Assembly (NCBI GenBank): GCA_016839815.1 | Contig: JAEOTM010000044.1 | Coordinates: forward strand, 1-12,616 | Reading direction: 5' to 3' | DNA: 12,616 bases | DNA from: Candidatus Hodarchaeota archaeon | GTDB taxonomy: Archaea; Asgardarchaeota; Heimdallarchaeia; Hodarchaeales; Hodarchaeaceae | Part shown: in pieces, positions 1 to 12,616 of the stretch | Layout of the letters: each line of letters starts with the position of its first letter | How positions within the stretch are numbered: position 1 is the stretch's first letter | Notes under the pieces: model-generated | The model's database searches: none | What the model saw: only the letters and a program-made list of their open reading frames with translations | What the model was told of the DNA's origin: nothing | Made by a program: the position numbers and the translations under genes

Positions 1-327
1 GTAACCGAGAGTTTCCAGGAAGTTCCTCCTGTAAAATCATACTCTTCAGTTGAATTATGTGGAACAGACTCTTTTATGATCGTTCCTGAAGGTAAAGAGC
101 ATATTGAACTAGAAAGTATAGCTGATTCCCTACTTAATGATTATCAAATGGTTAAACAAGGAAAATTGGCAATTACATTCAAATATACTGACCAGATTGT
201 TACAACGATATTTCGTGGGGGAAATATCCTAATAAGAGGAGTGGAACATAAGGATGAAGCTGCTCATATAGGCACATTTATTAGAAAAAAGTATCTTCAA
301 AATAAAACACCTTCAAAAGCCTATTAA
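1..327 (+). CDS. 5'-truncated ThiF/MoeB/HesA-family (E1-like) adenylyltransferase, C-terminal TBP-like domain only
   Basis: Frame 1 is open from base 1 (VTESFQEVPPVKSYSSVELCGTDSFMIVP...), so the listed ATG at 76 is probably internal. The segments 'ELCGTDSFMIVP' and 'TIFRGGNILIRGVEHKDEA' resemble the LCG...P and F.DG..LI.G....EA pattern of the C-terminal extension of MoeB/ThiF proteins. The catalytic domain lies outside the window. Confidence 0.6.
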   Translation, partial: VTESFQEVPPVKSYSSVELCGTDSFMIVPEGKEHIELESIADSLLNDYQMVKQGKLAITFKYTDQIVTTIFRGGNILIRGVEHKDEAAHIGTFIRKKYLQNKTPSKAY

Positions 328-479
328 AATATTCTTTGTCAACATCTAACAATGAAATTTGCTTGTTGAGATTTTTCAATAGAAAAACCATTTCCATATA
401 GTAAGGATTAATTCAAATTTACGAATATTAATATAAAGTGCTTATGAGTTCTCTTCCAGATATAAATTCTAATGATAAT

Positions 480-494
480 GATAAAATTTAAATT
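480..494 (+). promoter_or_regulatory. Putative archaeal BRE/TATA promoter for the DENN gene
   Basis: Purine-rich GATAAAA (480-486) is followed by TTTAAAT (487-493), which begins 28 nt before the ATG at 515. This spacing fits a leaderless or short-leader transcript. Other TATA-like words occur at about 428-437 and 460-467, and the region is AT-rich. Confidence 0.35.
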
Positions 495-514
495 GGTTTG
501 GATGACGGTTAGAC

Positions 515-1678
515 ATGGCTGACGTTGTTTTTTCTGCTTTTGACGAGAGAGCGGGACCCATAGCGGTTTTTGCAACGATTAATGATCCTGTTATCTCAAA
601 AAAAATCGCTGTGAAATCCATTGTCTCCACTCTAACAAGTATTCGTTCTAATACTTCTGAAAATATGGAAGGAGAGGCAATAATACCTTTTCCTGATGAA
701 AATCTGATTTCGTTTATTTATTACACTACTTTGAATCAACGAACAGAAACTGGAGAGCTTCGAGTAATTACATTGAGTGCTGTGGTACCTAAAACAGAAA
801 ATTCGACATTATACGCTAATGCTGCACTACTTTCTCAATCCGCCTTACGAATCAAAGCACTACTTAACAAGGAGTACGTTTTTGGAAACCCTCTTCCTAA
901 AAATATAGCTACTGAATTGGAAGGATGGGGAAAACTAACAAAGGCCGCAAAATCGGAAATTATTGCTGAAAAAGAAATCGAATTTAACTTAAGCAGTCTC
1001 TTTAGCCTTTTTCCTGCAAAAAAGGGAAGACGTTCATTTACAGATCCGTTACTTCAGTTATTTTTTGGAATGATGGCAAAGATTCCAGTCATTTTAGTTG
1101 GACCCAATATTGAATTTCTTTTAGAAATATCCGATTTACTACGTGAATTTAATACAGAAGAAGAGTTGGATGTTAGAATTTCTATTAATTTGGAAAATAA
1201 AGACGATACGGCAGTATTTAACATTCCTCGGGCTGATATTATTCTTTTAGATGAAAACCAAAACCAACGTAGGCATCTTTATTATGACCCCATAGCTTTG
1301 GTGGGTGTAGGAAGAGAATCCAGATATGCAAATTATGCTGGATCAGAAAGAGTTGAAAAGACTTTTAACACTTTTTTGAAAAAAGCCCGTGAAATATCTG
1401 ACGAAGGAGTGGCATTTCTTTATCTGAAAGGAGAACTATTATCATTTACTGCGAAATTGACGAATTTGAAAGCCTATTGTCTTTCAGGAAGGCAAGGAAA
1501 AGCTAAAGAAATAGCTAAGATAATTAATGTAGGTGAAGACTATTTATTTGCTTTAGTTGAAGTATTAAGATTGAGACAGATGGTTCCCATTTCAGAACTC
1601 AACAAGATGTTTAAGAATGCAACAAATTATGAAGAAATGGAAATTCGTAGTAAAGAAATTATTGGATTCGTTCGATAA
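515..1678 (+). CDS. Tripartite DENN-domain protein (uDENN/longin + cDENN + dDENN), folliculin/SMCR8/C9orf72-like eukaryotic signature protein
   Basis: N-terminal longin signature VVFSAFDERAGP (compare C9orf72 FAYWDNILGP, SMCR8 FSEQVGP, FLCN FCELHGP). Longin strands IIPFP...ISFIYY...RVITLSAVV are followed by a helix. The cDENN entry motif is LFFGMMAKIPVILVGPN plus a helix. The helical C-terminus LYLKGELLSFTAKLTNLKAYC...KEIAKIINVGEDYLFALVEVL resembles the dDENN of FLCN/C9orf72. Confidence 0.7.
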   Translation: MADVVFSAFDERAGPIAVFATINDPVISKKIAVKSIVSTLTSIRSNTSENMEGEAIIPFPDENLISFIYYTTLNQRTETGELRVITLSAVVPKTENSTLYANAALLSQSALRIKALLNKEYVFGNPLPKNIATELEGWGKLTKAAKSEIIAEKEIEFNLSSLFSLFPAKKGRRSFTDPLLQLFFGMMAKIPVILVGPNIEFLLEISDLLREFNTEEELDVRISINLENKDDTAVFNIPRADIILLDENQNQRRHLYYDPIALVGVGRESRYANYAGSERVEKTFNTFLKKAREISDEGVAFLYLKGELLSFTAKLTNLKAYCLSGRQGKAKEIAKIINVGEDYLFALVEVLRLRQMVPISELNKMFKNATNYEEMEIRSKEIIGFVR

Positions 1679-1697
1679 TAGCGAAAGACAATAATGT

Positions 1698-2753
1698 TTG
1701 GACAGACCAGTTATGTCACAACGAGAGAGAGAAATATCTGAGAAAATCGCTGAATTAGACAAAGAAAAAAAGATCTTAGAAGGGACAAAGGCATACTATG
1801 AGCAGAATCTTTCGTATGCAAACCTTGAAGAACTAACTGGAATTTCAATTCGGGAATTTAAACGCTTCCAAAGTGACAATGAATTTCCTTATCGGGTAGG
1901 TTCCTACAATAAACAAGCTATTTTCGAAAAAATCCAAAATCGAACCAATGAAATTGAAAAAGAAATCAAAAGACTTCGTGAATCGGTTTTTGGTGCCCTT
2001 GATCAGCTTTTATTTATTCCTTCCTGGCGGAGAATGATTGACTCATCATTCAATGGGTTTTATCTGAACCAACCAGTACAGAAAATCTTTCAAGACACTA
2101 TTATATTCCTTCCAGAATTAGCAATGACTGGATTTGAAGAAACGACTGGTGAACCCTTCTTCCTAATTACTGGATTAGGAATTTACTGGGTAAAATTTGA
2201 ACTAGGTGCAGGTTCAATAGTTACAGACTATAGAGAACTAACTGGGATGGTATTACCCTTTGATGTGTATCATCGCGCTCAAGATGAAACAGAGCAGGTC
2301 CTGAAAAGCGAAAAGATGCGGATGACTGAATATATGACATCCATTCCCTTTTCTCTGATACAAGAAAAGTCTACAACGCAAATGTATCTTCGTGGTGTCA
2401 TCTCTAGAAATATTTTTCATCCTTACAAAGAAAGTTTTGATCAATTCTTAGTCTTATGTAAAGACCCTAATAGTTTTAATTCTGGTGAAGGTCATAAAAT
2501 ACTTTCTGGAGGATTGACTGCTAATCGATCATTATATGGTAATGAATTGTTAACTCAGAAGCCGCTGGGTGAATATTCAAGATTAACTGCTGGTATTAAG
2601 AATACACAACCTAAGTTAAATAAGATTTTAGAGACATTACAACTAGATACAATGAGTGGAGCATTTTTTGACAAGTTAGATAAAATGAAGAGTGAGTTTA
2701 GTGAGATTGGGAGGAAATACCTTGTCGATTGGATGCCTGGCCATATTAGTTAG
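1698..2753 (+). CDS. Hypothetical protein: N-terminal coiled-coil hairpin with an inserted HTH-like segment, plus an unknown C-terminal globular alpha/beta domain
   Basis: 351-aa ORF starting 19 nt after the DENN gene (TTG at 1698; alternative ATG at 1713). Charged heptad helices EREISEKIAELDKEKKILE and IFEKIQNRTNEIEKEIKRLRE flank YYEQNLSYANLEELTGISIREFKRFQSDNEFP, which looks like a UPF0175-type HTH. No family was recognised for the remainder. Confidence 0.8.
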   Translation: MDRPVMSQREREISEKIAELDKEKKILEGTKAYYEQNLSYANLEELTGISIREFKRFQSDNEFPYRVGSYNKQAIFEKIQNRTNEIEKEIKRLRESVFGALDQLLFIPSWRRMIDSSFNGFYLNQPVQKIFQDTIIFLPELAMTGFEETTGEPFFLITGLGIYWVKFELGAGSIVTDYRELTGMVLPFDVYHRAQDETEQVLKSEKMRMTEYMTSIPFSLIQEKSTTQMYLRGVISRNIFHPYKESFDQFLVLCKDPNSFNSGEGHKILSGGLTANRSLYGNELLTQKPLGEYSRLTAGIKNTQPKLNKILETLQLDTMSGAFFDKLDKMKSEFSEIGRKYLVDWMPGHIS

Positions 2754-2756
2754 AAT

Positions 2757-3896
2757 TCAGCCAAAAATCTCTTCTAATGCAGTCTGAATCAGACCAATTT
2801 CTATTTCGGTTACTCCTGGGTGGATAGGGATCTCAAAGTGATTTTCTGATATTTGTTCTGTAATGGGAAGATTGACCTTACTATAATCAGGATATTTCAC
2901 ATATTGACTCCAACGCCATTTTTTCAGCCCTTGAAGATAGGTTGGCTGTTTATGACATCCTAATGCATATATACGTCTTGAAGCAATACCCTTCTCCTTC
3001 AATTGATGGATAACTTCGTCAACAGAAAATTTATCAGCATCAACTACGGGAGCACAAACGTAATGACTGTGAGTATAGTTCTTGGGTGTTTTTTGGACAT
3101 CCACATAATCTAAATTTGATATTGTCTGTCTTATTGTCTCAGCATTTCTTTTTCGTTTTTCAAGCATTGAAGGCAGCTTTCTCAACTGGATTAAACCAAT
3201 AGCTGCTAAAGGATCTGGCATACGCAAGTTATAACCAATTCTATGATGCTCATATCCTCCTTTTGGTCCCCGACCATGATTTTTAAGGCTGTGAATCCTT
3301 GCAGCAAGTTCATCATCATCTGTGACAATCATTCCCCCCTCACCTGTAATCATGTTTTTCGTTGCATAAAAAGAAAAACAGCCAATATCGCCGAATGTTC
3401 CGACATGCTTGTTATTGATTTTCGCACCATGAGCTTGACAGGCATCCTCGATGATCACTAGATTGTAATCTTCAGCCAATTCATTAATTAATTTCATATT
3501 ACACGGTAAACCGAAAATATGAACAGGAAGAATTGCTTTCGTCTGAGGAGTGATTAATTTTTCAATACTTTCAGGATCTATGGTATAAGATTCTGGATCA
3601 ATCTCCGCAAAAATTGGAATTCCTCCTCCAAACGTTATAGAATTTGCAGAGGCAATGAAAGTGAAAGCTGGGGTAATTACTTCAGCTCCTGGTGGTATTT
3701 GTGTTGCCTCCATTGCAAGATGTAATGCTGCCGTTCCATTCACTACGCAGATAGCATGTTTAGCACCTACAAACTCAGCAAACTCTTTTTCTAATGCTCT
3801 CGCGTTTTTCCCTTCAACAAATTGACCATTACGTATTGTTGAAGAAACTAGTGATATTTCCTCTTCCGAAATTTGGGGTTGTGCAATATATTTCAT
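2757..3896 (-). CDS. DegT/DnrJ/EryC1/StrS-family PLP-dependent sugar aminotransferase
   Basis: Diagnostic motifs NGTAALH, TFIASAN, IIEDACQAHGA, FSFYATKNMITGEGG (PLP lysine), GYNLRM and the C-terminal IPIHP. Length of 379 aa is typical. Confidence 0.95.
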   Translation of the reverse strand: MKYIAQPQISEEEISLVSSTIRNGQFVEGKNARALEKEFAEFVGAKHAICVVNGTAALHLAMEATQIPPGAEVITPAFTFIASANSITFGGGIPIFAEIDPESYTIDPESIEKLITPQTKAILPVHIFGLPCNMKLINELAEDYNLVIIEDACQAHGAKINNKHVGTFGDIGCFSFYATKNMITGEGGMIVTDDDELAARIHSLKNHGRGPKGGYEHHRIGYNLRMPDPLAAIGLIQLRKLPSMLEKRKRNAETIRQTISNLDYVDVQKTPKNYTHSHYVCAPVVDADKFSVDEVIHQLKEKGIASRRIYALGCHKQPTYLQGLKKWRWSQYVKYPDYSKVNLPITEQISENHFEIPIHPGVTEIEIGLIQTALEEIFG

Positions 3897-3922
3897 AAAA
3901 TCAGGTCTCTTAATTTGACTCG

Positions 3923-3946
3923 TTGTTAAACAAGAATATAATAAAA
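3923..3946 (-). promoter_or_regulatory. Putative TATA box plus a short palindrome upstream of the aminotransferase
   Basis: The minus strand reads TTTTATTATATT at about 3946-3935. It is immediately followed in the direction of transcription by the inverted repeat TTGTT-A-AACAA (3923-3933). This lies in the 202-nt divergent intergenic region. Confidence 0.25.
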
Positions 3947-4098
3947 TTTAAGTTACCAGTGGGATTTCTGTTAAGATTGTATCCAATTTGGGACTGAAAC
4001 AAATACTCTTAATTCATTTTTGAACAGAGTACAAATGAAGACATAAAAAAAGAATTGTCAAATAGTGAAGAATGAAGCTCATATAGCGGGGATGATTA

Positions 4099-4812
4099 GT
4101 GACTGTGACTACAGATGTTCAACAAATAGTTAGAAGATATCAAAATGTCTGTTCACAGCTTTCTCAGTATACACGAGATGGAAAAAAACCTCAATTGGTA
4201 CTAGTGACGAAAAATCAGCCTATTAGTATTATATTGGAGCTTTTGAGACAAGCTAAACCTTCAATCTATGGAGAAAATCGAATTTCGGAAGCACTTTCAA
4301 AGATTGATCTATGTAAAGGTACTGATGTGGAGTGGCATTTTATAGGACATCTACAACGAAATAAAGTAAAACGAGCGTTAGGAAAATTCACATTAATTCA
4401 TTCCCTATCTGATTTAAAACTAGCAAGAGAAATTGAGAAACGAGCTGCAATTAACAATCAACAGGTAAATTGTTTGATTCAGATAGATATATCAGAAGAT
4501 GGAACGAAGTTTGGTTTCCCCCCTGAGCAGAACTTCTTACTCGATGTAATGACAGAGTTAGCATTAATGTCACATCTACAAATTAAAGGATTGATGACAA
4601 TTGCACCTTTTATTTCATCAGAAGAGACACGACCACATTTCAGAAGTATGCGCTTGCTATTTGACACATTAGCCAAACAATGTGACAACCTAGATAATAT
4701 TGAAATGGAAACCTTGTCCATGGGTATGAGTAATGATTATATTGTTGCACTCGAGGAGGGTTCAAACATGGTAAGAATTGGGAATGCAATTTTTGAAGAT
4801 TATATACAATAA
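4099..4812 (+). CDS. yggS: YggS/PROSC/PLPBP-family pyridoxal-phosphate homeostasis protein
   Basis: Motifs LVLVTK (PLP lysine), YGENRISEA, WHFIGHLQRNK, GLMTIAP, LSMGMSNDY and EEGSNMVRIGNAIF. The GTG start is preceded by the SD-like GGGGATGA. Confidence 0.95.
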   Translation: MTVTTDVQQIVRRYQNVCSQLSQYTRDGKKPQLVLVTKNQPISIILELLRQAKPSIYGENRISEALSKIDLCKGTDVEWHFIGHLQRNKVKRALGKFTLIHSLSDLKLAREIEKRAAINNQQVNCLIQIDISEDGTKFGFPPEQNFLLDVMTELALMSHLQIKGLMTIAPFISSEETRPHFRSMRLLFDTLAKQCDNLDNIEMETLSMGMSNDYIVALEEGSNMVRIGNAIFEDYIQ

Positions 4813-4840
4813 AGAAAAAGAAAGTTAAAGTTGATAAGTA

Positions 4841-7800
4841 ATGACCACACCAGAAATTAGTTTCACTCTGAAAAAAAGTGAGACAAAGATCCTAAACACC
4901 TTGGTATCCTTTGGTAGTCAAACCAAGCATGATTTAATACTTATCTCGGAAGTTCAAGAGGAAAAAGCAGATCAAGCATTGGCAGAATTAAATAAAAAAG
5001 GATATATTCATATAGATGCCGAAACAGAGTTAGTTTCTGCAACATTACCAGTATCTACATTAATCAAGATGCTTACTGGAAATATGGATCAAATTGAAAG
5101 CGTAAGAGAGGGTTATAAAGGAGAATATCAACATTCCAAGAATTCTGTAGAAGAAGCATTAAAGCGATTTCAGGAAACAGTAGATGAAGGGTTTAAAACA
5201 CTACAAACACAAAATCTAGAATTAGATGCCTCATTGAAAGAATCAATTGAAGGGAAAGATAAATTAAATCAAACACAGATAGAGGAAATGGTAGATCAAG
5301 TAGTTACTTCAATGAATACAAAGATAGCAGAAACTCAAAATTCTATTCAAGCAAATATTTCCGAAGGGATTGGGAATTTAGACAAGCATTGGAGTAGGGC
5401 AACTGATGAATTTCAAAATTTGCCTGATTCTGGAACTCGTTCTCTTAAAAAGTCGATTAGTAAATACGAAAAAGAACTTAATGAGATTGTAAAAATTTCT
5501 GTTGAAAAAATCAATAGCATACAAAACCAATTCAACGAGTTACTGGAAGTAATTGAATCAGAATCCGTTTCTAGAATCCAAGAATTCTATTCAACTACTG
5601 ATACTGTTGCTAATGATCTTAAATCAAATTTAAGTACTGGTTTGCAGGAATCACGAAAACACGAGAAAGAATTTGTGAATGATGTAAGTCAACACATTAG
5701 ATCCTCTCTTGAAAAGGATATACTCAATGCATTAAAGGTGGTTATTGCAGATTTATCGAAAGAAATTGATAAAGATATCAATGAAGCCTTAAAACTTGTT
5801 GTTGACCAAACAGATAAAGCAATAAATGAAAGTTCAGAACAGATGAAGACTGAGTTTACTGAATTTACTGAGAATGCGAAAGAGTTAATTAAAGAGCAAA
5901 AAGTTTCTTTAGATGTCCTTGAAACTGAAGTTTCGGAACTTTCCACAGAACAAAAGCTTGAATCAGTAAGAGAGTTATTTTTAAGTCAATTACAAGCAGC
6001 ACAAACTACCGAGCTAAACCAGCTCGAATCAAGTTTTCGTAATACACAGAAATCTGTTCTTGACCTTGTTGAGTCATTAAGATCTTCTGCAAAGGCAAAA
6101 TTAACCCAACAAGGATCAGAGTTTGAAGGGTTAATCAAGAAATATTCCGATTTAATCGATCAGTCAGTTAACCGGAAAAAAACAGATATTACCAAGTTAC
6201 AACATCTTTCTCAGTCTATTGAGCAATTATTAAGAAATTTACTTGTTTCGATTCCAATGCGTACAAATCAGTTCAGAATATCTCTAAAAGAATCCTTAGA
6301 AGGTACGAATAAGGGTTTACAAGAAGAATTCGCTGAATCAACGGGGAGCTCAATCTCAAAGATATTCAAGACTCTAAATGATACCCAACAGAGGATTGAA
6401 TCGTTAACAAATGAAACGTTAGACGAGAGCAGAAACGAAATTCAAAAGGTAATTGCCTCTTCAGATCAGTTTCAAGAGAATACAGCTACTCTTCAAGAAG
6501 ATTATCTAAGTAAGGTACAGAATCGGTTTGATCAACGAGCTAAAGTTATGAATACAGAGTTAGATGCGATAACTCGTAATTTCCAACAGTTACTTGAGGG
6601 GATTGAATCTGGAGTCGGAGGTATTCATTCTCGGTTGACCTCTGAAGGTGTAACGAATATCTCTGCTGTTGAAACATCTCTTCAGAGTAAATTGACTCAG
6701 CTACGAAGTGAAATTAGCACTGTATTTACCCAGAGCCAAGTAGAAGCACAAGAGTTCGTTAACTCTTTAAACGAAAATCTTCAGACCCATTTAGATCGTA
6801 CTTTGAATGTAATCAAGGAGGGATTCAGTCAGGTTAAATCTGAATATAATTTAGAACTAACAAATCAGTTAGAGCAGCTCTCTACTAAAAACAAGAATCA
6901 ACAAGATGCTTTAATAGAAACTATTGAGGCATTTTCAGAGAAAGCATCATTTAGCGACTTCAAGACAAATTTGGAGAAAACTCTGGAGGAAAACCAATCC
7001 AACTTGAATGAGTTTATTGTGGAAAATCGAAGCAATTTAGATGAAGTATTTTCGTTACAAAAGGAAAATATTACCAAATATCAAGAAAAAGGACCGACGG
7101 ATATACTAGGCTTTATCAATCAGATCCAATCAGATGCAGCTAGTCAAAATAAGAATTTAAAAGAAGCAATGGAACAGCTTCTTTCCTACCACGGTAGCTT
7201 TTCAGATTCAACTAATGCTGAGGTATCAACATTACTTCGTCAGGTTCACGAAAGCGGGGATAAACTTAAATCGATTTTAAATGAATCATTACAAGCAATG
7301 TTAACCAATTTGAATCGTACAAGCGAAAATATTGATCTCTATTATTCGGATACACTAACAGAACTGGAAAATCAACTCGGAGTAGCCTCAGGATTTGTTT
7401 CTTCAGAAATTGAAGCGTCATTCCAATCAATTCGAACAGAAATTGACACATTAAAGGATGAATTGGAAAGCACTGTAGAGCAGCTTAATGCAGATTTAAA
7501 AGGAGTAGTATCCAAATCCGATCAAGAATTCAAGAGTAATATTCCTGAAATTACTGAACAATTTTCTAGTGCATTTGATGAGTTGGTTGAAGAAAAGAAT
7601 ACGTCTAATGCTGAACTACAAGATACTATATCCGACAATATGACTGATTTTATGTCATCTTATAGCTCTCAAGTATCCAGTATTAGATCCAAGCTACAGG
7701 ATTTGTTAACTCAGTTTAACAAAGCGATTGAATCCAATATTGAAAATCTTGATGTTATTGTTGAAACAAACATTAAACAAGCTTTGAAGAGAATCGAATC

Positions 7801-9022
7801 CATTTATCACATTGACTCAAGTAAGGAAGATCCATTTAATCTAAAAGAAATTCATTCCAAGGTCACTCTAGCAAATAAACGGTTAAAATCGGTTGTATCG
7901 GAATCTATTCGGACTCTGCTAGAAGAATTTGAAAACAATCTCCCTGATCTACAGTCCTCTTTTGATGCAATCCATGGCCAATCGGAAGAGGATTTAACCA
8001 AAGCAATTGAAGAATTGACTGACATAATTTCCAGCTTTCAAATGACCCTTACAACAGATCTTCACAATTATCTTAATGAGGAAAGAGAGCAGTTAGATTT
8101 TTCAGAATTGAGAGATAGCTTAAAAGCGGTTACAGAAGGTTTCAACAAAGAATCAACAACGAATGTTGAACAACTCTCTCTTGATTTTACCGATAGTATC
8201 CAACGCGCCATTAATGAGGTTAACAAATCGCGAGAAGATATTCAGTCCATTTTAACAAATTTAACGGAATCTATGAAAGGGAGTGGTACAGAAACTACTG
8301 TTCATTTAACCTCTATAAAAACCGACCTCAGTTCTAAAGTGGATGGATTGAGTAGTGATTTCTCAAAAAATATATCCAAGGACTTAGAATCTTATAATAA
8401 CGAAATTAAAAAGTCAATATTAGAAAATAAGGGAAATATGACTAAATTCATTCAATCAATTAATTCAGAGATAGAAAGATACCTCTCGGATTTTTTAAAC
8501 AGGACTAATGAAATACTTACTGGGCTTAAGGATTCGCACGCTGAACAAACAGAGATTTTGGGTGCCTTGGAAGCTGAACTAGCTGGTAGGGAATCTATCT
8601 CATATTTACGACTATTAAAATTATCCTCAAATAACGCAATTAATGAATACCTAATAGAATATATAAAAAACGCTTCTAAACAGGTTACATTGTATATGGC
8701 TGACCCTACTATTCTATCAACCACTGATCTGAAAAGTGTGCCTTCTGAAAAACGGATCTGGATTTTTACGAGTTATGATTTTAGTAAAAAAGGTAAAAAA
8801 TGGTTCAATGAGATTGGAAAACAAGTGAACATTAATTTACGTAAATCTAAGGGAACAGGAAGAATTTCCGGAATATTAGCAGTCAGAGATGAAGATCAAG
8901 CTATAGTTCTACCTGAAGATGTAGGATTTACTACATTCGATAGTAAATTTGTTAACTATCTGTTAAATTTGCTCAATCTGCTAAAGGGGTCGTCTCTCAG
9001 ATTGAATAAAGAATCTACTTGA
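4841..9022 (+). CDS. Giant TrmB-architecture protein: N-terminal winged HTH, ~1190-aa amphipathic helical/coiled-coil region, C-terminal inactive PLD-like (TrmB C-terminal-type) domain
   Basis: The N-terminus LKKSETKILNTLVSFGSQTKHDL...ALAELNKKGYI...SATLP follows the TrmB wHTH pattern. The C-terminus INEYLIEYIKNASKQVTLYM...RIWIFT...INLRK...LAVRDEDQAIV follows the TrmB/PLD-like pattern without an HKD motif. The middle is E/Q/K/S/L-rich and Pro-poor. No Walker A or LSGG motif was found, so it is not an SMC ATPase. Confidence 0.75.
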   Translation: MTTPEISFTLKKSETKILNTLVSFGSQTKHDLILISEVQEEKADQALAELNKKGYIHIDAETELVSATLPVSTLIKMLTGNMDQIESVREGYKGEYQHSKNSVEEALKRFQETVDEGFKTLQTQNLELDASLKESIEGKDKLNQTQIEEMVDQVVTSMNTKIAETQNSIQANISEGIGNLDKHWSRATDEFQNLPDSGTRSLKKSISKYEKELNEIVKISVEKINSIQNQFNELLEVIESESVSRIQEFYSTTDTVANDLKSNLSTGLQESRKHEKEFVNDVSQHIRSSLEKDILNALKVVIADLSKEIDKDINEALKLVVDQTDKAINESSEQMKTEFTEFTENAKELIKEQKVSLDVLETEVSELSTEQKLESVRELFLSQLQAAQTTELNQLESSFRNTQKSVLDLVESLRSSAKAKLTQQGSEFEGLIKKYSDLIDQSVNRKKTDITKLQHLSQSIEQLLRNLLVSIPMRTNQFRISLKESLEGTNKGLQEEFAESTGSSISKIFKTLNDTQQRIESLTNETLDESRNEIQKVIASSDQFQENTATLQEDYLSKVQNRFDQRAKVMNTELDAITRNFQQLLEGIESGVGGIHSRLTSEGVTNISAVETSLQSKLTQLRSEISTVFTQSQVEAQEFVNSLNENLQTHLDRTLNVIKEGFSQVKSEYNLELTNQLEQLSTKNKNQQDALIETIEAFSEKASFSDFKTNLEKTLEENQSNLNEFIVENRSNLDEVFSLQKENITKYQEKGPTDILGFINQIQSDAASQNKNLKEAMEQLLSYHGSFSDSTNAEVSTLLRQVHESGDKLKSILNESLQAMLTNLNRTSENIDLYYSDTLTELENQLGVASGFVSSEIEASFQSIRTEIDTLKDELESTVEQLNADLKGVVSKSDQEFKSNIPEITEQFSSAFDELVEEKNTSNAELQDTISDNMTDFMSSYSSQVSSIRSKLQDLLTQFNKAIESNIENLDVIVETNIKQALKRIESIYHIDSSKEDPFNLKEIHSKVTLANKRLKSVVSESIRTLLEEFENNLPDLQSSFDAIHGQSEEDLTKAIEELTDIISSFQMTLTTDLHNYLNEEREQLDFSELRDSLKAVTEGFNKESTTNVEQLSLDFTDSIQRAINEVNKSREDIQSILTNLTESMKGSGTETTVHLTSIKTDLSSKVDGLSSDFSKNISKDLESYNNEIKKSILENKGNMTKFIQSINSEIERYLSDFLNRTNEILTGLKDSHAEQTEILGALEAELAGRESISYLRLLKLSSNNAINEYLIEYIKNASKQVTLYMADPTILSTTDLKSVPSEKRIWIFTSYDFSKKGKKWFNEIGKQVNINLRKSKGTGRISGILAVRDEDQAIVLPEDVGFTTFDSKFVNYLLNLLNLLKGSSLRLNKEST

Positions 9023-9036
9023 AGCTGGGAATAGAT

Positions 9037-10857
9037 TTAGATTCTAATAATACCAAAAAGGCTTGCTTTCCTCAAAGTCTCTAAAGTGACTAAACCATTG
9101 GAATTCAACCCTTTTTCTTTATAATATGAATTCAATAGTTCATTTTGGATCTTGAAGAAGTCACTTTGTCCTTCAATATATCGCGAAAAAACGTCATTAG
9201 AGGATGTTAATCCAGATCGTGTATTGAAAAGACGTTCAAGTAGCGTTATTCTATTTCCAATCTCAAGAATATTGTCAGTTGATCCACTAGAGGATACTAG
9301 GTGTTGAATTATTTGCGCTAGTTGTGAATCATTCAGAATAAGTTTATCAAACAGTCTTTTTGGTATATGTTCCATAAGAAATGCGGAAAATTTCGATGGT
9401 AAATTCCTAAAAACAAGATTAGACTTCAAGAATATCGGTATAAAACGAGGACATAAGATTAGTGAGTCTAAAACTGCATATAAATTTTCAAATAACATCA
9501 ATAGACGGATTTTTCCATTTAGGGTCTTAGGTGAGAGACGAAATGGAAATCCAAGGCATTCTGGATAAATCAGACCACTAGTTTTGTTATGAATTGCTCC
9601 ATATTGAGCAGAACTGAGCTCCATACTCAATGCTGGACAATTGGGGAAGTAAAACATCCCTGGCATTTGGTTTTTTATCATTGGGGAAGGTTCGCTGGTT
9701 TGTTTATAGAGATAATTCTCACTCCGAGCCAGCTGGTCGCCTAATCCCTTTTTCTGAACGATATCCTCAATTAATGAATAAATTTGTCTTTCTCCCAGAT
9801 TATACCCTAGATTAATATTCAGAAGTTTTCGTTTGTCTTCCTGAATTTGAAATAATGATGCTAAAGCTGCACCTGTTGATATAGGATCAAGTCCTTCTTC
9901 ATCACACTTTTCTATGGCCTTTTGAATAGATTTGTGATCCAATAACTTAAGATTTGGGCCTAATGCAATGAAGTTTTGATAGGAGTTTCTTTCACATTTA
10001 ACAGGACATTGCCAGCAATTAAAGGGTTTACCATACCCATGAAATGAGGAAACCTGATCTGTTTGTAGTAGAAGTTCGCGGGTACAATTTTTTGTTGGAA
10101 TGACATGTGCCTGAATCATCGAATAGATGGTCGAGAATGTACCTTGAGACTGTAGCATATTAGACCATGGGTGGGTCTGAAGTATTGATTGAAATCTTGA
10201 AAACTCATCTTCATTGAATCCATTAAGGTCCCGAGGAGTTGGGGGCTCCGTAAACACAATTGCTTTTATGTTTTTAGATGCAAGAACACTTCCTAATCCT
10301 CCACGGTGGAAATGATGAACCTTATCAACTACAACACCCGAATAAGTAACTTGATTTATGGCTGCGGGACCAATACAGGCAATACATGAGTCCTGGCCAT
10401 ACTTCTCTCTCAATTCCCGATCAGTTGCATTGATAGATTTTAACCAAAATTGAGATGCAGTTTCTAGGGAAATATCAGCGAACTCATCGATTACAATGTA
10501 TTGAGGAGATTTAGCCTGTCCAGTAATCTGAAGAAAGTCATTTCCAGTATGCTTTAAGTACGCTCCAAAATAACCTGTACTTGTAGCGGTACATAGTGTA
10601 TTCGTATGAGGTGATTTAAAAGTAGCTATAGCTGTACCAGAGGAAGGAAATGTCGATCCAGTTAATACTCCTGTTCCAAAAATAATGTTATTTCCTGAAC
10701 CGCGGGGACTTGTGTCAACAGGAATGGATTCATAGCTTAAATATACCGCAATTCCTCTTCCTCCTAAAAATGTGTCAACAATTTTAGGGTTAATTGTTTT
10801 TTTTGGTATAACTTTATTTTCTGTCAGATCCAGGCTGATGAGAGTTGGAGAATACAT
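9037..10857 (-). CDS. Aldehyde:ferredoxin oxidoreductase (AOR/WOR, tungstopterin) family protein, divergent active site
   Basis: Motifs FLGGRG, FGTGVLTG, KSPHT, CIGPA, RGGLGSVLASKNIKAI, CWQCPVKC plus DSLILC (four 4Fe-4S Cys), CDEEGLDPISTG, IGNRITLLERLFN and YYKEKG...G...ETL. The 606-aa length is full size. Confidence 0.9.
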   Translation of the reverse strand: MYSPTLISLDLTENKVIPKKTINPKIVDTFLGGRGIAVYLSYESIPVDTSPRGSGNNIIFGTGVLTGSTFPSSGTAIATFKSPHTNTLCTATSTGYFGAYLKHTGNDFLQITGQAKSPQYIVIDEFADISLETASQFWLKSINATDRELREKYGQDSCIACIGPAAINQVTYSGVVVDKVHHFHRGGLGSVLASKNIKAIVFTEPPTPRDLNGFNEDEFSRFQSILQTHPWSNMLQSQGTFSTIYSMIQAHVIPTKNCTRELLLQTDQVSSFHGYGKPFNCWQCPVKCERNSYQNFIALGPNLKLLDHKSIQKAIEKCDEEGLDPISTGAALASLFQIQEDKRKLLNINLGYNLGERQIYSLIEDIVQKKGLGDQLARSENYLYKQTSEPSPMIKNQMPGMFYFPNCPALSMELSSAQYGAIHNKTSGLIYPECLGFPFRLSPKTLNGKIRLLMLFENLYAVLDSLILCPRFIPIFLKSNLVFRNLPSKFSAFLMEHIPKRLFDKLILNDSQLAQIIQHLVSSSGSTDNILEIGNRITLLERLFNTRSGLTSSNDVFSRYIEGQSDFFKIQNELLNSYYKEKGLNSNGLVTLETLRKASLFGIIRI

Positions 10858-11053
10858 TTCAGCTTGCCATTCACCATTAGTTGGTCCAATGTTAACTCTT
10901 ACTAGAGAATTTCTTTAAGTTCCTAATTTTAGTTAAATATTCTTTATAGGGATAATATTCAAGGCTCTCAAAGTATTTTTTTTGAGTGAGTATTATTCGT
11001 GGTTATTGAGAGTTTTTCGTAAGTTTTTCTAAAGAAATTGTGAGGAACATTAC

Positions 11054-11060
11054 TTATATA
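11054..11060 (+). promoter_or_regulatory. Putative TATA box for the surface-protein gene
   Basis: TTATATA lies about 55-60 nt upstream of the ATG at 11115, in the AT-rich divergent intergenic region 10858-11114. SD-like GGTGG words occur at 11097 and 11117. Confidence 0.3.
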
Positions 11061-11114
11061 ACTTCTATATTGAATAGGTCATTAGTTTTTTCTAAAGGTG
11101 GATTGGATTTAAAG

Positions 11115-12616
11115 ATGGTGGGTAACTTAGATTTGAAGGTAAATTGGACCAATAAAATAATTTTTATTATTAGTGTTATTTTCCTAATCCTTAGTTCATT
11201 ATTTTTTCTAAATAGTCCATTTCTTGATTTTAGATTTGTTTCAAACTATCAGAAGGTTAACTTTGCTGATTACACATGGCAGCAGAATATGAGCTCTTTT
11301 CAAAATTGGAACCAATTAAATAATGACCCGAATTTTGATATAGATGGGGATGGAGGTCTAAATTATAATATAACAGTAGATTCTTCTTTTGGAATAAATG
11401 CATGGACCCCCGAAGGATTCATTAATCGAACTGGATTTTGGGACTCCGGAGCATCCGATTACCGTTATGCAGGTTTACATAGGACTGAAATTCATTTACA
11501 AGATCCAGAATGGGAGGTTATGTCCAAGATTATATTTGATTCAGAATTTCAAGGAGCTACTTATTCTGCTGCAGGAGGTATACGAATTGCTATCTATAAT
11601 GAGAACTATGACATTATGTTATATGCTATGGTAGCTGATGGAGCAGGTTCATCCAATTCACACAGGATCTATGGACGTTTCGCTTTTTATGATGAGACGG
11701 GCACAGATAATTTAATAATCGATACAGAACGCCAAGAATCAGATGTTGATATCAATGACGATTATTTTGGCATTAAATGTGATGGGAGTAATAATTTTTA
11801 CGTCTATTTTCCAGATGAAATCTTAGATGGAAATGGTTGGCGATTAGCGACGTCTCGAAGTAATGCTTTGTCACGAGGAACCCCTACTTACCTCGTGTTA
11901 AAGTGGCATGAACGTTATGAAGCACCCATAGATTTACATGTTACAAATATCAATTTCTCGTCCTCTGTTGGGTCTACACCCCTACCTGAGGCGGGGTCTT
12001 GGGTACAAGAAATGAAAACCCTGGCTAACTGGACACAAATGAATGGTGATCCGAACTTTGACCCTACCTCGTCTGGTGAATCTTTTTCATATAATGTTGA
12101 GGTAGATTCATCTTTTGAGACTAGTGCGTGGGCTCCTGAGGGTTTTGTAACTCGTACGGAGTTTTGGGAATCTGGACCAACATACAATGTTTATGCTGGT
12201 CTATATAGAAGGGAGATCCATCTAAAGGATTCAGAATGGGAAGTGCTTACCCAGATCATATTTAATTCTGAATACCAAGGTAGTACATATTCTGCCTCGG
12301 GAGGTATCCAAATAGCTGTGTATAATGAGAACTATGACATTATGTTATATGCTCTGGTAGCTGATGGAGCAGCTTCATCCAATTCGCACAGAATCTATGG
12401 ACGTTTCGCATATTTTGATGAGACGGGCACAGATGATTTAATAATTGATACAGAACGTCAGGAATCAGATATTGATATTAATAATGATTATTTTGGTATT
12501 AAATGTAATGGGAGTAGCAATTTTTATGTCTATTTTCCAGATGAAATTTTGGATGGAAATGGTTGGCGATTAGCGACGTCTCGAAGTAATGCTTTGTCAC
12601 GAGGAACCCCTACTTA
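11115..12616 (+). CDS. 3'-truncated secreted or membrane-anchored glycoprotein with tandem ~241-aa beta-sandwich (probably ConA/LamG-like) domains
   Basis: Absent from the ORF track, probably because there is no stop before the window end. Hand translation from ATG 11115 (alternative TTG at 11133) gives about 500 stop-free codons: MVGNLDLKVNWTNKIIFIISVIFLILSSLFFLNSP (signal peptide or TM), then W/Y/F/G/N/D-rich domains ...YAGLHRTEIHL...GGIRIAIYNENYDIMLYAMVADG...YFGIKCDGSNNFYVYF... repeated in frame. Confidence 0.88.
   Translation, partial: MVGNLDLKVNWTNKIIFIISVIFLILSSLFFLNSPFLDFRFVSNYQKVNFADYTWQQNMSSFQNWNQLNNDPNFDIDGDGGLNYNITVDSSFGINAWTPEGFINRTGFWDSGASDYRYAGLHRTEIHLQDPEWEVMSKIIFDSEFQGATYSAAGGIRIAIYNENYDIMLYAMVADGAGSSNSHRIYGRFAFYDETGTDNLIIDTERQESDVDINDDYFGIKCDGSNNFYVYFPDEILDGNGWRLATSRSNALSRGTPTYLVLKWHERYEAPIDLHVTNINFSSSVGSTPLPEAGSWVQEMKTLANWTQMNGDPNFDPTSSGESFSYNVEVDSSFETSAWAPEGFVTRTEFWESGPTYNVYAGLYRREIHLKDSEWEVLTQIIFNSEYQGSTYSASGGIQIAVYNENYDIMLYALVADGAASSNSHRIYGRFAYFDETGTDDLIIDTERQESDIDINNDYFGIKCNGSSNFYVYFPDEILDGNGWRLATSRSNALSRGTPT
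11277..11999 (+). repeat. Intragenic tandem domain repeat, copy 1 (723 nt, 241 aa)
   Basis: WQQNMSSFQNWNQLNNDPNFD... at 11277 aligns with WVQEMKTLANWTQMNGDPNFD... at 12000. The offset is 723 nt, becoming 726 nt after a one-codon indel. Confidence 0.92.
12000..12616 (+). repeat. Intragenic tandem domain repeat, copy 2 (truncated by window end)
   Basis: 12321-12616 matches 11595-11890 with about 22 mismatches in 296 nt by hand count. The last 65 nt (12552-12616) are identical to 11826-11890. Confidence 0.92.

Follow-up and report, generated by a model that had tools for sequence, protein, structure and literature searches.

The gene and its predicted fold

The window analysed here, i.e. the whole 12,616-nt stretch at positions 1 to 12,616 of the forward strand of contig JAEOTM010000044.1 (assembly GCA_016839815.1, Candidatus Hodarchaeota archaeon), carries an uninterrupted open reading frame (ORF) at 515–1678 on the + strand, whose 387 codons encode a 387-aa protein (P0001, hereafter the target). 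The target is predicted to be a compact two-lobe longin plus cDENN/dDENN module of the Folliculin (FLCN)/SMCR8/C9orf72 class, and its family appears to have kept the GP motif of the catalytic pocket while losing the catalytic arginine finger. At the lysosome of eukaryotes, Folliculin, SMCR8-C9orf72 and GATOR1 act as controls on Rag and Arf GTPases; where these regulators came from is one of the unsettled problems of eukaryogenesis.

The gene is real and under strong purifying selection: 58 homologs were found, nearly all of 384–395 aa and every one from Asgard archaea (labelled Hodarchaeales, Heimdallarchaeota or Odinarchaeota), and the pairwise ratios of nonsynonymous to synonymous substitution (dN/dS) against orthologs were 0.05–0.13, with dS close to saturation. 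All conservation counts given below were taken from a family alignment of 48 sequences, some columns of which hold 47 ungapped rows. From the same alignment an AlphaFold2 (AF2) model of the 387-aa protein was built, with a mean predicted local distance difference test score (pLDDT) of 85.7 and 209 residues at >=90; its weak stretches are residues 45–47, 144–155 and 227–230. The features of the gene, all on the + strand, are as follows.

515–1678, +: gene of the longin-DENN protein P0001; intact ORF, with homologs of ~387 aa
515–943, +: predicted longin (uDENN) domain, residues 1–143, delimited by AF2 secondary structure, VIA and hhalign
539–559, +: GP motif FDERAGP, residues 9–15, family pattern F9-D10-[E/D]-[R/K]12-x-G14-P15, in the b1-b2 loop or at the start of b2
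671–694, +: G53-E-A-I-I-P-F-P60, in strand b3, the family's best-conserved block
743–763, +: b4-b5 hairpin T77-E-T79-G80-E-L-R83; position 79 is the arginine-finger position, Thr here, with G80 and R83 kept
944–982, +: inter-lobe linker of low confidence, residues 144–156, pLDDT <50 at 144–155; an insertion site in family members
983–1582, +: predicted DENN lobe, residues 157–356, matched to the FLCN C-terminal domain by VIA and to 3v42_B by Foldseek (probability 1.00)
1058–1108, +: LFFGMMAKIPVILVGPN, residues 182–198, modelled as helix 180–188 plus the first DENN-core strand (192–196)
1583–1675, +: conserved C-terminal tail, residues 357–387, pLDDT 87–94, with a helix at 359–365 and a terminal strand at 382–386 (I-G-F-[I/V]-R)

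In the model the longin elements follow in the order b1 (3–10), b2 (14–20), a1 (25–43), b3 (53–59), b4 (64–76), b5 (82–92) and helices to residue 138. Within the b3 block, G53, E54, I56, P58, F59 and P60 are invariant in 48/48 sequences, and the motif G53-P60 served to find related loci. The DENN lobe is laid out as an alpha/beta cDENN core with strands between 192 and 272, followed by dDENN-like helices (278–353); P191, G196 and P197 in the LFFGMMAKIPVILVGPN region are near-invariant, and longin-DENN relatives carry ‘RPVIVTGDE’ and ‘NPILVTGES’ at the equivalent segment. Residues 296–354 (nt 1400–1576) are helical (297–323, 330–336 and 341–353). Conservation reaches into the tail, where N363 is found in 48/48 sequences and G384 in 47/47 ungapped rows. 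One Odin-labelled homolog, P0054, has a tandem APAVQ repeat inserted in the inter-lobe linker (alignment A1 columns ~195–240), which therefore tolerates insertions; in the same homolog a deletion takes out the b4-b5 hairpin loop.

The model was searched against the PDB by Foldseek and, independently of Foldseek, by VIA-align (VIA) against 48,161 chains. By Foldseek the top match was FLCN (6ulg_L, E 2.7e-8), followed by other FLCN chains and then by SMCR8/C9orf72, FNIP2, DENND1B (E 3e-6), DENND10 and DENND1A, all at probability 1.00 and over ~400 aligned columns; owing to a different orientation of the lobes, the global TM-scores of these matches stayed low (~0.3). VIA gave the following matches.

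FLCN 6nzd_H: Z 16.2, 314 residues aligned, model 1–356, the best full-length match
Loki longin 8yqg_B: Z 14.7, 136 aligned, rmsd 2.6 Å, model 1–146
C9orf72 7o2w_A: Z 12.3, 325 aligned, model 1–371
Lst4 longin 4zy8_C: Z 12.2, 128 aligned, model 1–144
SMCR8 6lt0_B: Z 12.0, 307 aligned, model 1–379
FLCN C-terminal DENN 3v42_B (crystal structure): Z 11.8, 180/199 aligned, rmsd 3.8 Å, model 154–356 against chain 343–555
DENND10 8p0v_M: Z 11.4, 284 aligned, model 1–359
DENND1A 6ekk_A: Z 10.8, 282 aligned, model 1–354

The longin residues were also matched by NPRL2 (8fw5_B, Z 11.0), and all top matches of both searches were longin-DENN proteins covering both lobes. A feature search of the ESM Atlas returned first a Heimdall cluster (0.95) of which 23% of members are Folliculin-positive in Pfam, and next clusters of eukaryotic C9orf72-like proteins (0.89), Folliculin, SMCR8 and DENND11. 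Together the model displays the N-terminal longin (uDENN) fold of the FLCN/SMCR8/C9orf72 class and, after it in the same chain, a DENN lobe.

The first-pass annotation of this DNA had read the ORF as a complete longin plus cDENN/dDENN module within 387 aa, and the AF2 model, Foldseek and VIA agree with it across both lobes. The three motifs from which it had argued (FDERAGP at nt 539–559, LFFGMMAKIPVILVGPN at nt 1058–1108 and the helical stretch at nt 1400–1576) lie where it had placed them, and the two folds on which it had staked the reading are both borne out by the model, residues 1–140 as a longin (through the 8yqg_B and Lst4 matches) and residues ~160–387 as cDENN/dDENN (through the superposition of residues 154–356 on 3v42_B). 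Of the checks it had proposed, the structural one returned FLCN, C9orf72 and SMCR8 by Foldseek, and the sequence one, through Pfam and the PDB, gave no FLCN or DENN match.

Pocket motifs and kinship with Folliculin-type longins

The GP motif has been described as closing the b1-b2 loop or opening b2, and was reported in FLCN, NPRL2, SMCR8 and C9orf72 but not in FNIP2, NPRL3, DENND or other longins; its loop adjoins the arginine finger in the catalytic pocket, and the Asgard FLCN/SMCR8-type longins keep motif and finger together (PMC12290439, Traffic 2025). In the target family F9, D10, G14 and P15 were each found in 47/47 ungapped rows and position 12 was always basic (R in 38 and K in 9 of the 47), and in the model G14-P15 opens strand b2, as expected of a GP motif. 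The spacing from F9-D10 to G14-P15 is that from W33-D34 to G38-P39 in C9orf72, the residues required for GTPase-activating protein (GAP) activity of the C9orf72-SMCR8-WDR41 (CSW) complex (PMC12290439). However, F-D-x3-G-P also occurs in the finger-bearing Asgard longins and is thus not a specific C9orf72 signature.

The arginine finger, R147 of SMCR8 and R164 of FLCN, has been published to sit on the longin b4-b5 loop, which in the target model comprises residues 77–81. By both MAFFT and hhalign, T79-G80-E-L-R83 was aligned with R-G-G-x-R of the finger-bearing longins, placing T79 opposite their invariant Arg and R83 opposite the second Arg of A-R-G-G-x-R, with G80 and R83 common to both classes. 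Position 79 is G in 27, T in 16, S in 3 and E in 1 of the family rows, and R or K in 0/47. Besides R/K12, the basic residues that are conserved near the pocket motifs are K/R76 (44/48) and R83 (46/47). The family therefore appears to lack the finger that marks the catalytic GAP subunits, i.e. FLCN, SMCR8, NPRL2 and the Asgard ARGG-type longins, and the published ‘GAP-type’ Asgard longins keep the GP motif together with the finger whereas the target family has G, T or S at that position. On these alignments the family combines a GP motif with a missing finger, as C9orf72 does and as FLCN and SMCR8 do not. From the published loop position and the Pfam Folliculin matches described below, we infer that the ARGG arginine corresponds to FLCN R164. 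Human FLCN presumably reads S-L-A-R164-G-F-Q-R168-W here, which would fit the same R-G-x-x-R register.

The kinship with Folliculin was reached through intermediates. A Pfam scan of the target and all 48 family members gave no match to longin, Folliculin, Folliculin_C, C9orf72-like or DENN/uDENN/dDENN models even at E <= 10, a point in which the family differs from the published Asgard longin and longin+DENN proteins. Sequence searches of the PDB with the single protein, the family profile, a longin profile and an ARGG-enriched profile did not reach FLCN, SMCR8 or C9orf72; the only entry reached, through profiles, was the Loki longin 8yqg (E 0.005–0.014; 0.005 with the longin profile). An exhaustive HMMER search yielded weak relatives that match in the longin domain only. 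A subset of these, P0179, P0183, P0189, P0190, P0199 and P0216, carries A-R-G-G-x-R in the hairpin, and the same six match Pfam Folliculin (PF11704) at E 4e-8 to 6e-4 over exactly b3-b5, three of them passing the curated cut-off. Moreover, the target-family profile picked up relatives in two other Asgard families, namely a tandem trio in genome G038 and a single 379-aa gene in G262, at E ~1e-28 to 1e-30, and their Pfam Folliculin scores equal or exceed the cut-off. Reciprocally, a search of the target's genome with a profile of the Arg-finger longins recovered the target itself at E 1e-28, and the target family compared with the ARGG-type longins by hhalign gave 99.7% probability (E 2.6e-25, 143 columns). 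As PF11704 is passed by relatives whose own match to the target profile reaches E ~1e-30, homology to Folliculin is supported transitively, and by profile comparison the target longin is homologous at the sequence level to the Folliculin-type Asgard longins, though it lies under Pfam detection.

The trio of G038, a closed Asgard genome, consists of tandem Folliculin-positive finger-bearing longin genes on C1 (locus L027) at 8091–9209, 9515–10642 and 10896–11396 (372, 375 and 166 aa), and in the two long members the C-terminal half gives no alignment with DENN. Both this cluster and the 379-aa relative in L028, which belongs to the other family, have a flanking gene for a xylose-isomerase-like TIM barrel, and a SNAP/TPR-like and a PCI-like gene come next. 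No GTPase or roadblock neighbours of these relatives were found at the G038 and G262 loci.

The first-pass annotation had called the protein ancestral-like; this was not supported, since the family is without the catalytic arginine that the finger-bearing Asgard relatives, FLCN and SMCR8 keep, and it is probably derived and C9orf72-like rather than ancestral-like.

Candidate partners, proposed role and rival explanations

The window's genome (4.24 Mb in 206 contigs, 89.5% complete) holds about 30 small-GTPase genes, seen as ~33 matches to the Gtr1/RagA model, of which at least ten are strongly Rag-like (E <= 1e-16), and several of these lie in open frames of 316–345 aa, a length that would fit a GTPase joined to a roadblock domain. 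All of them lie outside the window, in keeping with the earlier proposal that the GTPase of this regulator is encoded elsewhere.

In longin GAP complexes such as FLCN-FNIP, SMCR8-C9orf72 and NPRL2-NPRL3, one longin subunit with a finger and one without form an obligate heterodimer, and two paralogous longin proteins of the same genome were considered as candidate partners. The protein on contig C139 (L011, 1492–2583; 363 aa) has a longin N-terminus that aligns to the target's longin and shares DENN-core-like elements (NPILVTGES, ADIIG); having neither GP motif nor finger, it appears to be in an FNIP-like state. It occurs in 19/21 congeneric genomes, many of which also hold further ~25%-identical paralogs of ~365–400 aa. 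The protein on contig C147 (L031, 956–2284; 442 aa) carries FDEEHGP and S-A-R-G-K-N-R, scores 27.9 bits against Pfam Folliculin and is thus GP-positive and finger-positive, with a non-DENN C-terminal part. It was the sole finger-bearing longin detected in the genome by the Arg-finger profile search and is present in 20/21 genomes of the genus. Its gene directly follows a Roadblock/LC7 gene (L031, 121–612), and an Arf-family GTPase gene with a C-terminal extension (318 aa; L031, 6683–7639) lies 4.4 kb downstream, so that the C147 locus is a candidate catalytic module.

Because the F-D-x3-G-P pocket motif is kept but Gly, Thr or Ser stands at the finger position, the target is most likely a finger-less, C9orf72-like member of its class and probably not a stand-alone folliculin-type GAP. 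We consider it moderately likely that it forms a dimeric longin-DENN platform for a Rag-, Arf- or Rab-like GTPase. By analogy with characterised members of the class, the soluble protein would dimerise through longin-longin and DENN-DENN contacts, and the platform would bind and regulate a Rag-, Arf- or Rab-like GTPase, of which the genome encodes many elsewhere, the target serving as a co-catalytic or scaffolding subunit as C9orf72 does beside SMCR8 or, alternatively within the same proposal, as a regulator working without a canonical finger. GTPase binding, dimerisation, the identities of partner and client and the direction of regulation are all what we infer from that analogy.

Several results weigh against this proposal. 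The equation of the ARGG arginine with FLCN R164 was made by way of the loop position and the Pfam Folliculin matches, FLCN itself being out of reach of the sequence searches. Neither in the window nor in eight syntenic loci was a GTPase, roadblock or second longin gene found; as Asgard GTPases have been published to lie generally outside operons with their longin or roadblock regulators, the missing neighbour is expected and is not an argument against a GTPase role, and the client is therefore not readable from gene order. No fused forms were found among proteins of 679–2000 aa, which is weak evidence. Lastly, neither paralog (19/21 and 20/21) co-varies with the target (~11/21), both being near-universal in the genus and therefore independent of it. 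In a narrower and rather improbable version of the proposal, the split into a finger-bearing catalytic and a finger-less GP-bearing co-subunit, the SMCR8/C9orf72 arrangement, would already have been in place in Asgard archaea, and the target would pair with a finger-bearing longin of the same genome, e.g. the C147 protein, and would thereby redirect or modulate GAP activity on a Rag/Arf-like GTPase.

The same pocket leaves some room for a GAP that would act alone, as a homodimer, through a relocated basic residue, either R/K12 or one of K/R76 and R83 flanking the b4-b5 loop. The conservation of these three positions and the published vicinity of the GP-motif loop to the finger (PMC12290439) speak for it, and position 12 is variable (E, D, A, K) in the finger-bearing relatives, a weak hint of compensation. 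However, this trend comes from few and related sequences, and G80 and R83 are just as invariant in the longins that have the finger, which makes a structural role of R83 the likelier one; we regard a relocated finger as unlikely. A DENN-type guanine nucleotide exchange factor (GEF) for a Rab- or Arf-like GTPase, as DENND1 is for Rab35, would need no arginine finger and would be compatible with its absence. Both lobes do align to DENND1A, DENND1B and DENND10 (the Z-scores and E value given above), and a GEF role was proposed for Asgard DENN modules by Liu et al. (10.1101/2020.10.19.343400). Yet FLCN, C9orf72 and SMCR8 outscore the DENND proteins by VIA, the target carries a GP motif that is reported absent from the DENND family (PMC12290439), and none of the 48 members matches a Pfam DENN, uDENN or dDENN model, which together make the GEF explanation a doubtful one.

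The remaining explanation looks to the gene next door as the real partner, the two genes forming a functional unit.

1713–2753, +: gene of a 346-aa protein, starting 34 nt past the DENN stop codon, after a gap free of oligo-T runs

The two genes are on the same strand and adjacent in 8 genomes with gaps of 33–47 nt, and in seven loci (L001-5, L007, L008); by locus tags, distant homologs of both also stand 4 genes apart in one Odin-labelled metagenome-assembled genome. Their distributions, by contrast, are decoupled: the 346-aa family was found in 135/301 Asgard genomes sampled and in 21/21 of the genus, including genomes without the DENN gene, against 26/301 for the DENN family (presence threshold E <= 1e-20). 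In six congeneric genomes the DENN gene is missing from between the ThiF and 346-aa genes, its relatives in families f7 and f23 occur in genomes where the 346-aa family was not found (0/11 and 0/6), and locus L006 has the DENN gene without the 346-aa gene. The AF2 model of the 346-aa protein (pLDDT 83.7, predicted TM-score 0.78) shows an N-terminal helical hairpin, long beta-hairpins (124–182) and an alpha/beta part, which is neither a longin nor a DENN fold; against the PDB no significant Foldseek match was obtained (best E 0.06), and VIA gave only generic helical hairpins on residues 1–93. A functional two-gene unit is hence very unlikely and, because of the decoupled distributions, the operon is at most a transcriptional convenience. 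The 346-aa protein was also considered as an FNIP-like second longin-DENN subunit and was rejected, its fold being confident and neither longin nor DENN.

Several known systems come close to the target. Human FLCN, the RagC/D GAP subunit of FLCN-FNIP2 (PDB 6nzd, 6ulg, 8dhb, 3v42), is the best structural match over both lobes; both have the GP motif, and the target keeps the G-x-x-R part of the hairpin. They differ in that the target has no Arg at the R164 position, no FNIP-like partner gene nearby and, at 387 aa, none of the long insertions of FLCN (aligned chain range 2–555), with ~13% identity. Human C9orf72, the finger-less subunit of the CSW GAP for ARF/RAB (7o2w, 7mge, 6lt0), shares the longin-DENN fold, the aromatic-Asp...Gly-Pro spacing and the lack of a finger of its own; however, no SMCR8-like finger-bearing longin-DENN partner was detected in the target's genome, only the 442-aa longin with its different C-terminal part. 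DENND1A/B and DENND10 (Rab GEFs and a Commander subunit; 6ekk, 3tw8, 8p0v) are similarly sized compact uDENN-cDENN-dDENN modules, aligned over ~282 residues, with lower scores than FLCN and without the GP motif that the target carries invariantly. The Lokiarchaeota Roadblock-Longin (8yqg) is the closest single-domain structure to the target longin and was solved as a longin dimer, supporting a dimeric platform for the target, but its longin is fused to a roadblock and not to DENN, and its hairpin has neither of the two arginines.

The first-pass annotation had implied a novelty that is overstated: longin+DENN proteins built like folliculin have been in print for Heimdall-group Asgard archaea since 2020/21 (Liu et al., bioRxiv 10.1101/2020.10.19.343400, later Nature 2021) and Asgard longins with GP motif and Arg finger in 2025 (Traffic, PMC12290439), with which the target shares the GP motif and, by profile, a homologous longin. 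The existence of archaeal longin-DENN proteins is therefore not new in itself. In the literature searched, no Asgard longin-DENN protein was found to have been put to an experimental test. What goes beyond the literature consulted is the family-wide absence of the finger arginine with the GP pocket kept, the link to Pfam Folliculin through intermediate relatives, and the presence or absence of the DENN gene at a fixed chromosomal slot. The family offers a clean, insertion-free and well-folding archaeal version of the whole two-lobe module at 387 aa, convenient for structural and biochemical work, and the loss of its finger beside finger-bearing relatives in the same phylum, one of them in the same genome, poses a testable question, namely whether the specialisation into catalytic and non-catalytic subunits preceded eukaryotes.

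The chromosomal slot and its neighbourhood

At the other side of the DENN gene stands the end of a second conserved neighbour.

1–327, +: ThiF-family (E1-like) gene, last 108 codons only, cut by the window start, upstream of the DENN gene

In seven related Hodarchaeales loci a conserved order was found, i.e. helicase, ThiF-like, DENN, 346-aa gene, DegT (on the opposite strand), YggS-like and a giant helical protein. Also in the window are genes for a DegT aminotransferase, a YggS-like pyridoxal-phosphate (PLP) protein, an aldehyde:ferredoxin oxidoreductase and a TrmB-derived helical protein of 1393 aa. The ThiF-family gene is ~350 aa at full length, as seen at L008:4754-5803 and L002:132-1217 (E 1e-62 to 2e-66), and in the relatives it is preceded by a ~803-aa XPD/Rad3-like helicase with a PD-(D/E)XK-like N-terminus.

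The DENN gene is accessory at this fixed slot. It was detected in 11/21 genomes of the genus; as to its forms there, eight genomes gave one full-length match, one a match split across a linker insertion, one a partial match and two a 152-aa longin-only form. In six congeneric genomes without it, the ThiF and 346-aa genes are direct neighbours, a clean absence. On a tree of the 346-aa protein these six genomes form one subclade (support 98/95) nested among DENN-bearing lineages, which fits loss rather than gain, the root of the tree being uncertain. The 346-aa family itself is confined to Asgard archaea, often with 2–5 paralogs per genome, some of them in fused frames of 450–740 aa.

Upstream of the DENN gene, a conserved short element was seen.

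422–440, +: CGAATATTAATATAAAGTG, 19 nt, AT-rich, conserved candidate upstream element ~75–93 nt before the ATG

It is identical or near-identical in the four closest loci, where the surrounding intergenic non-coding DNA has diverged, and is a candidate archaeal TATA-type (TATA/BRE) promoter element of the DENN gene. A conserved TGGATGA lies ~14 nt ahead of the same ATG. The G+C content of the window is 32–39%. Downstream, the 346-aa gene and the convergent DegT gene end 3 nt apart (window 2753–2757), which therefore leaves no space for separate terminators.

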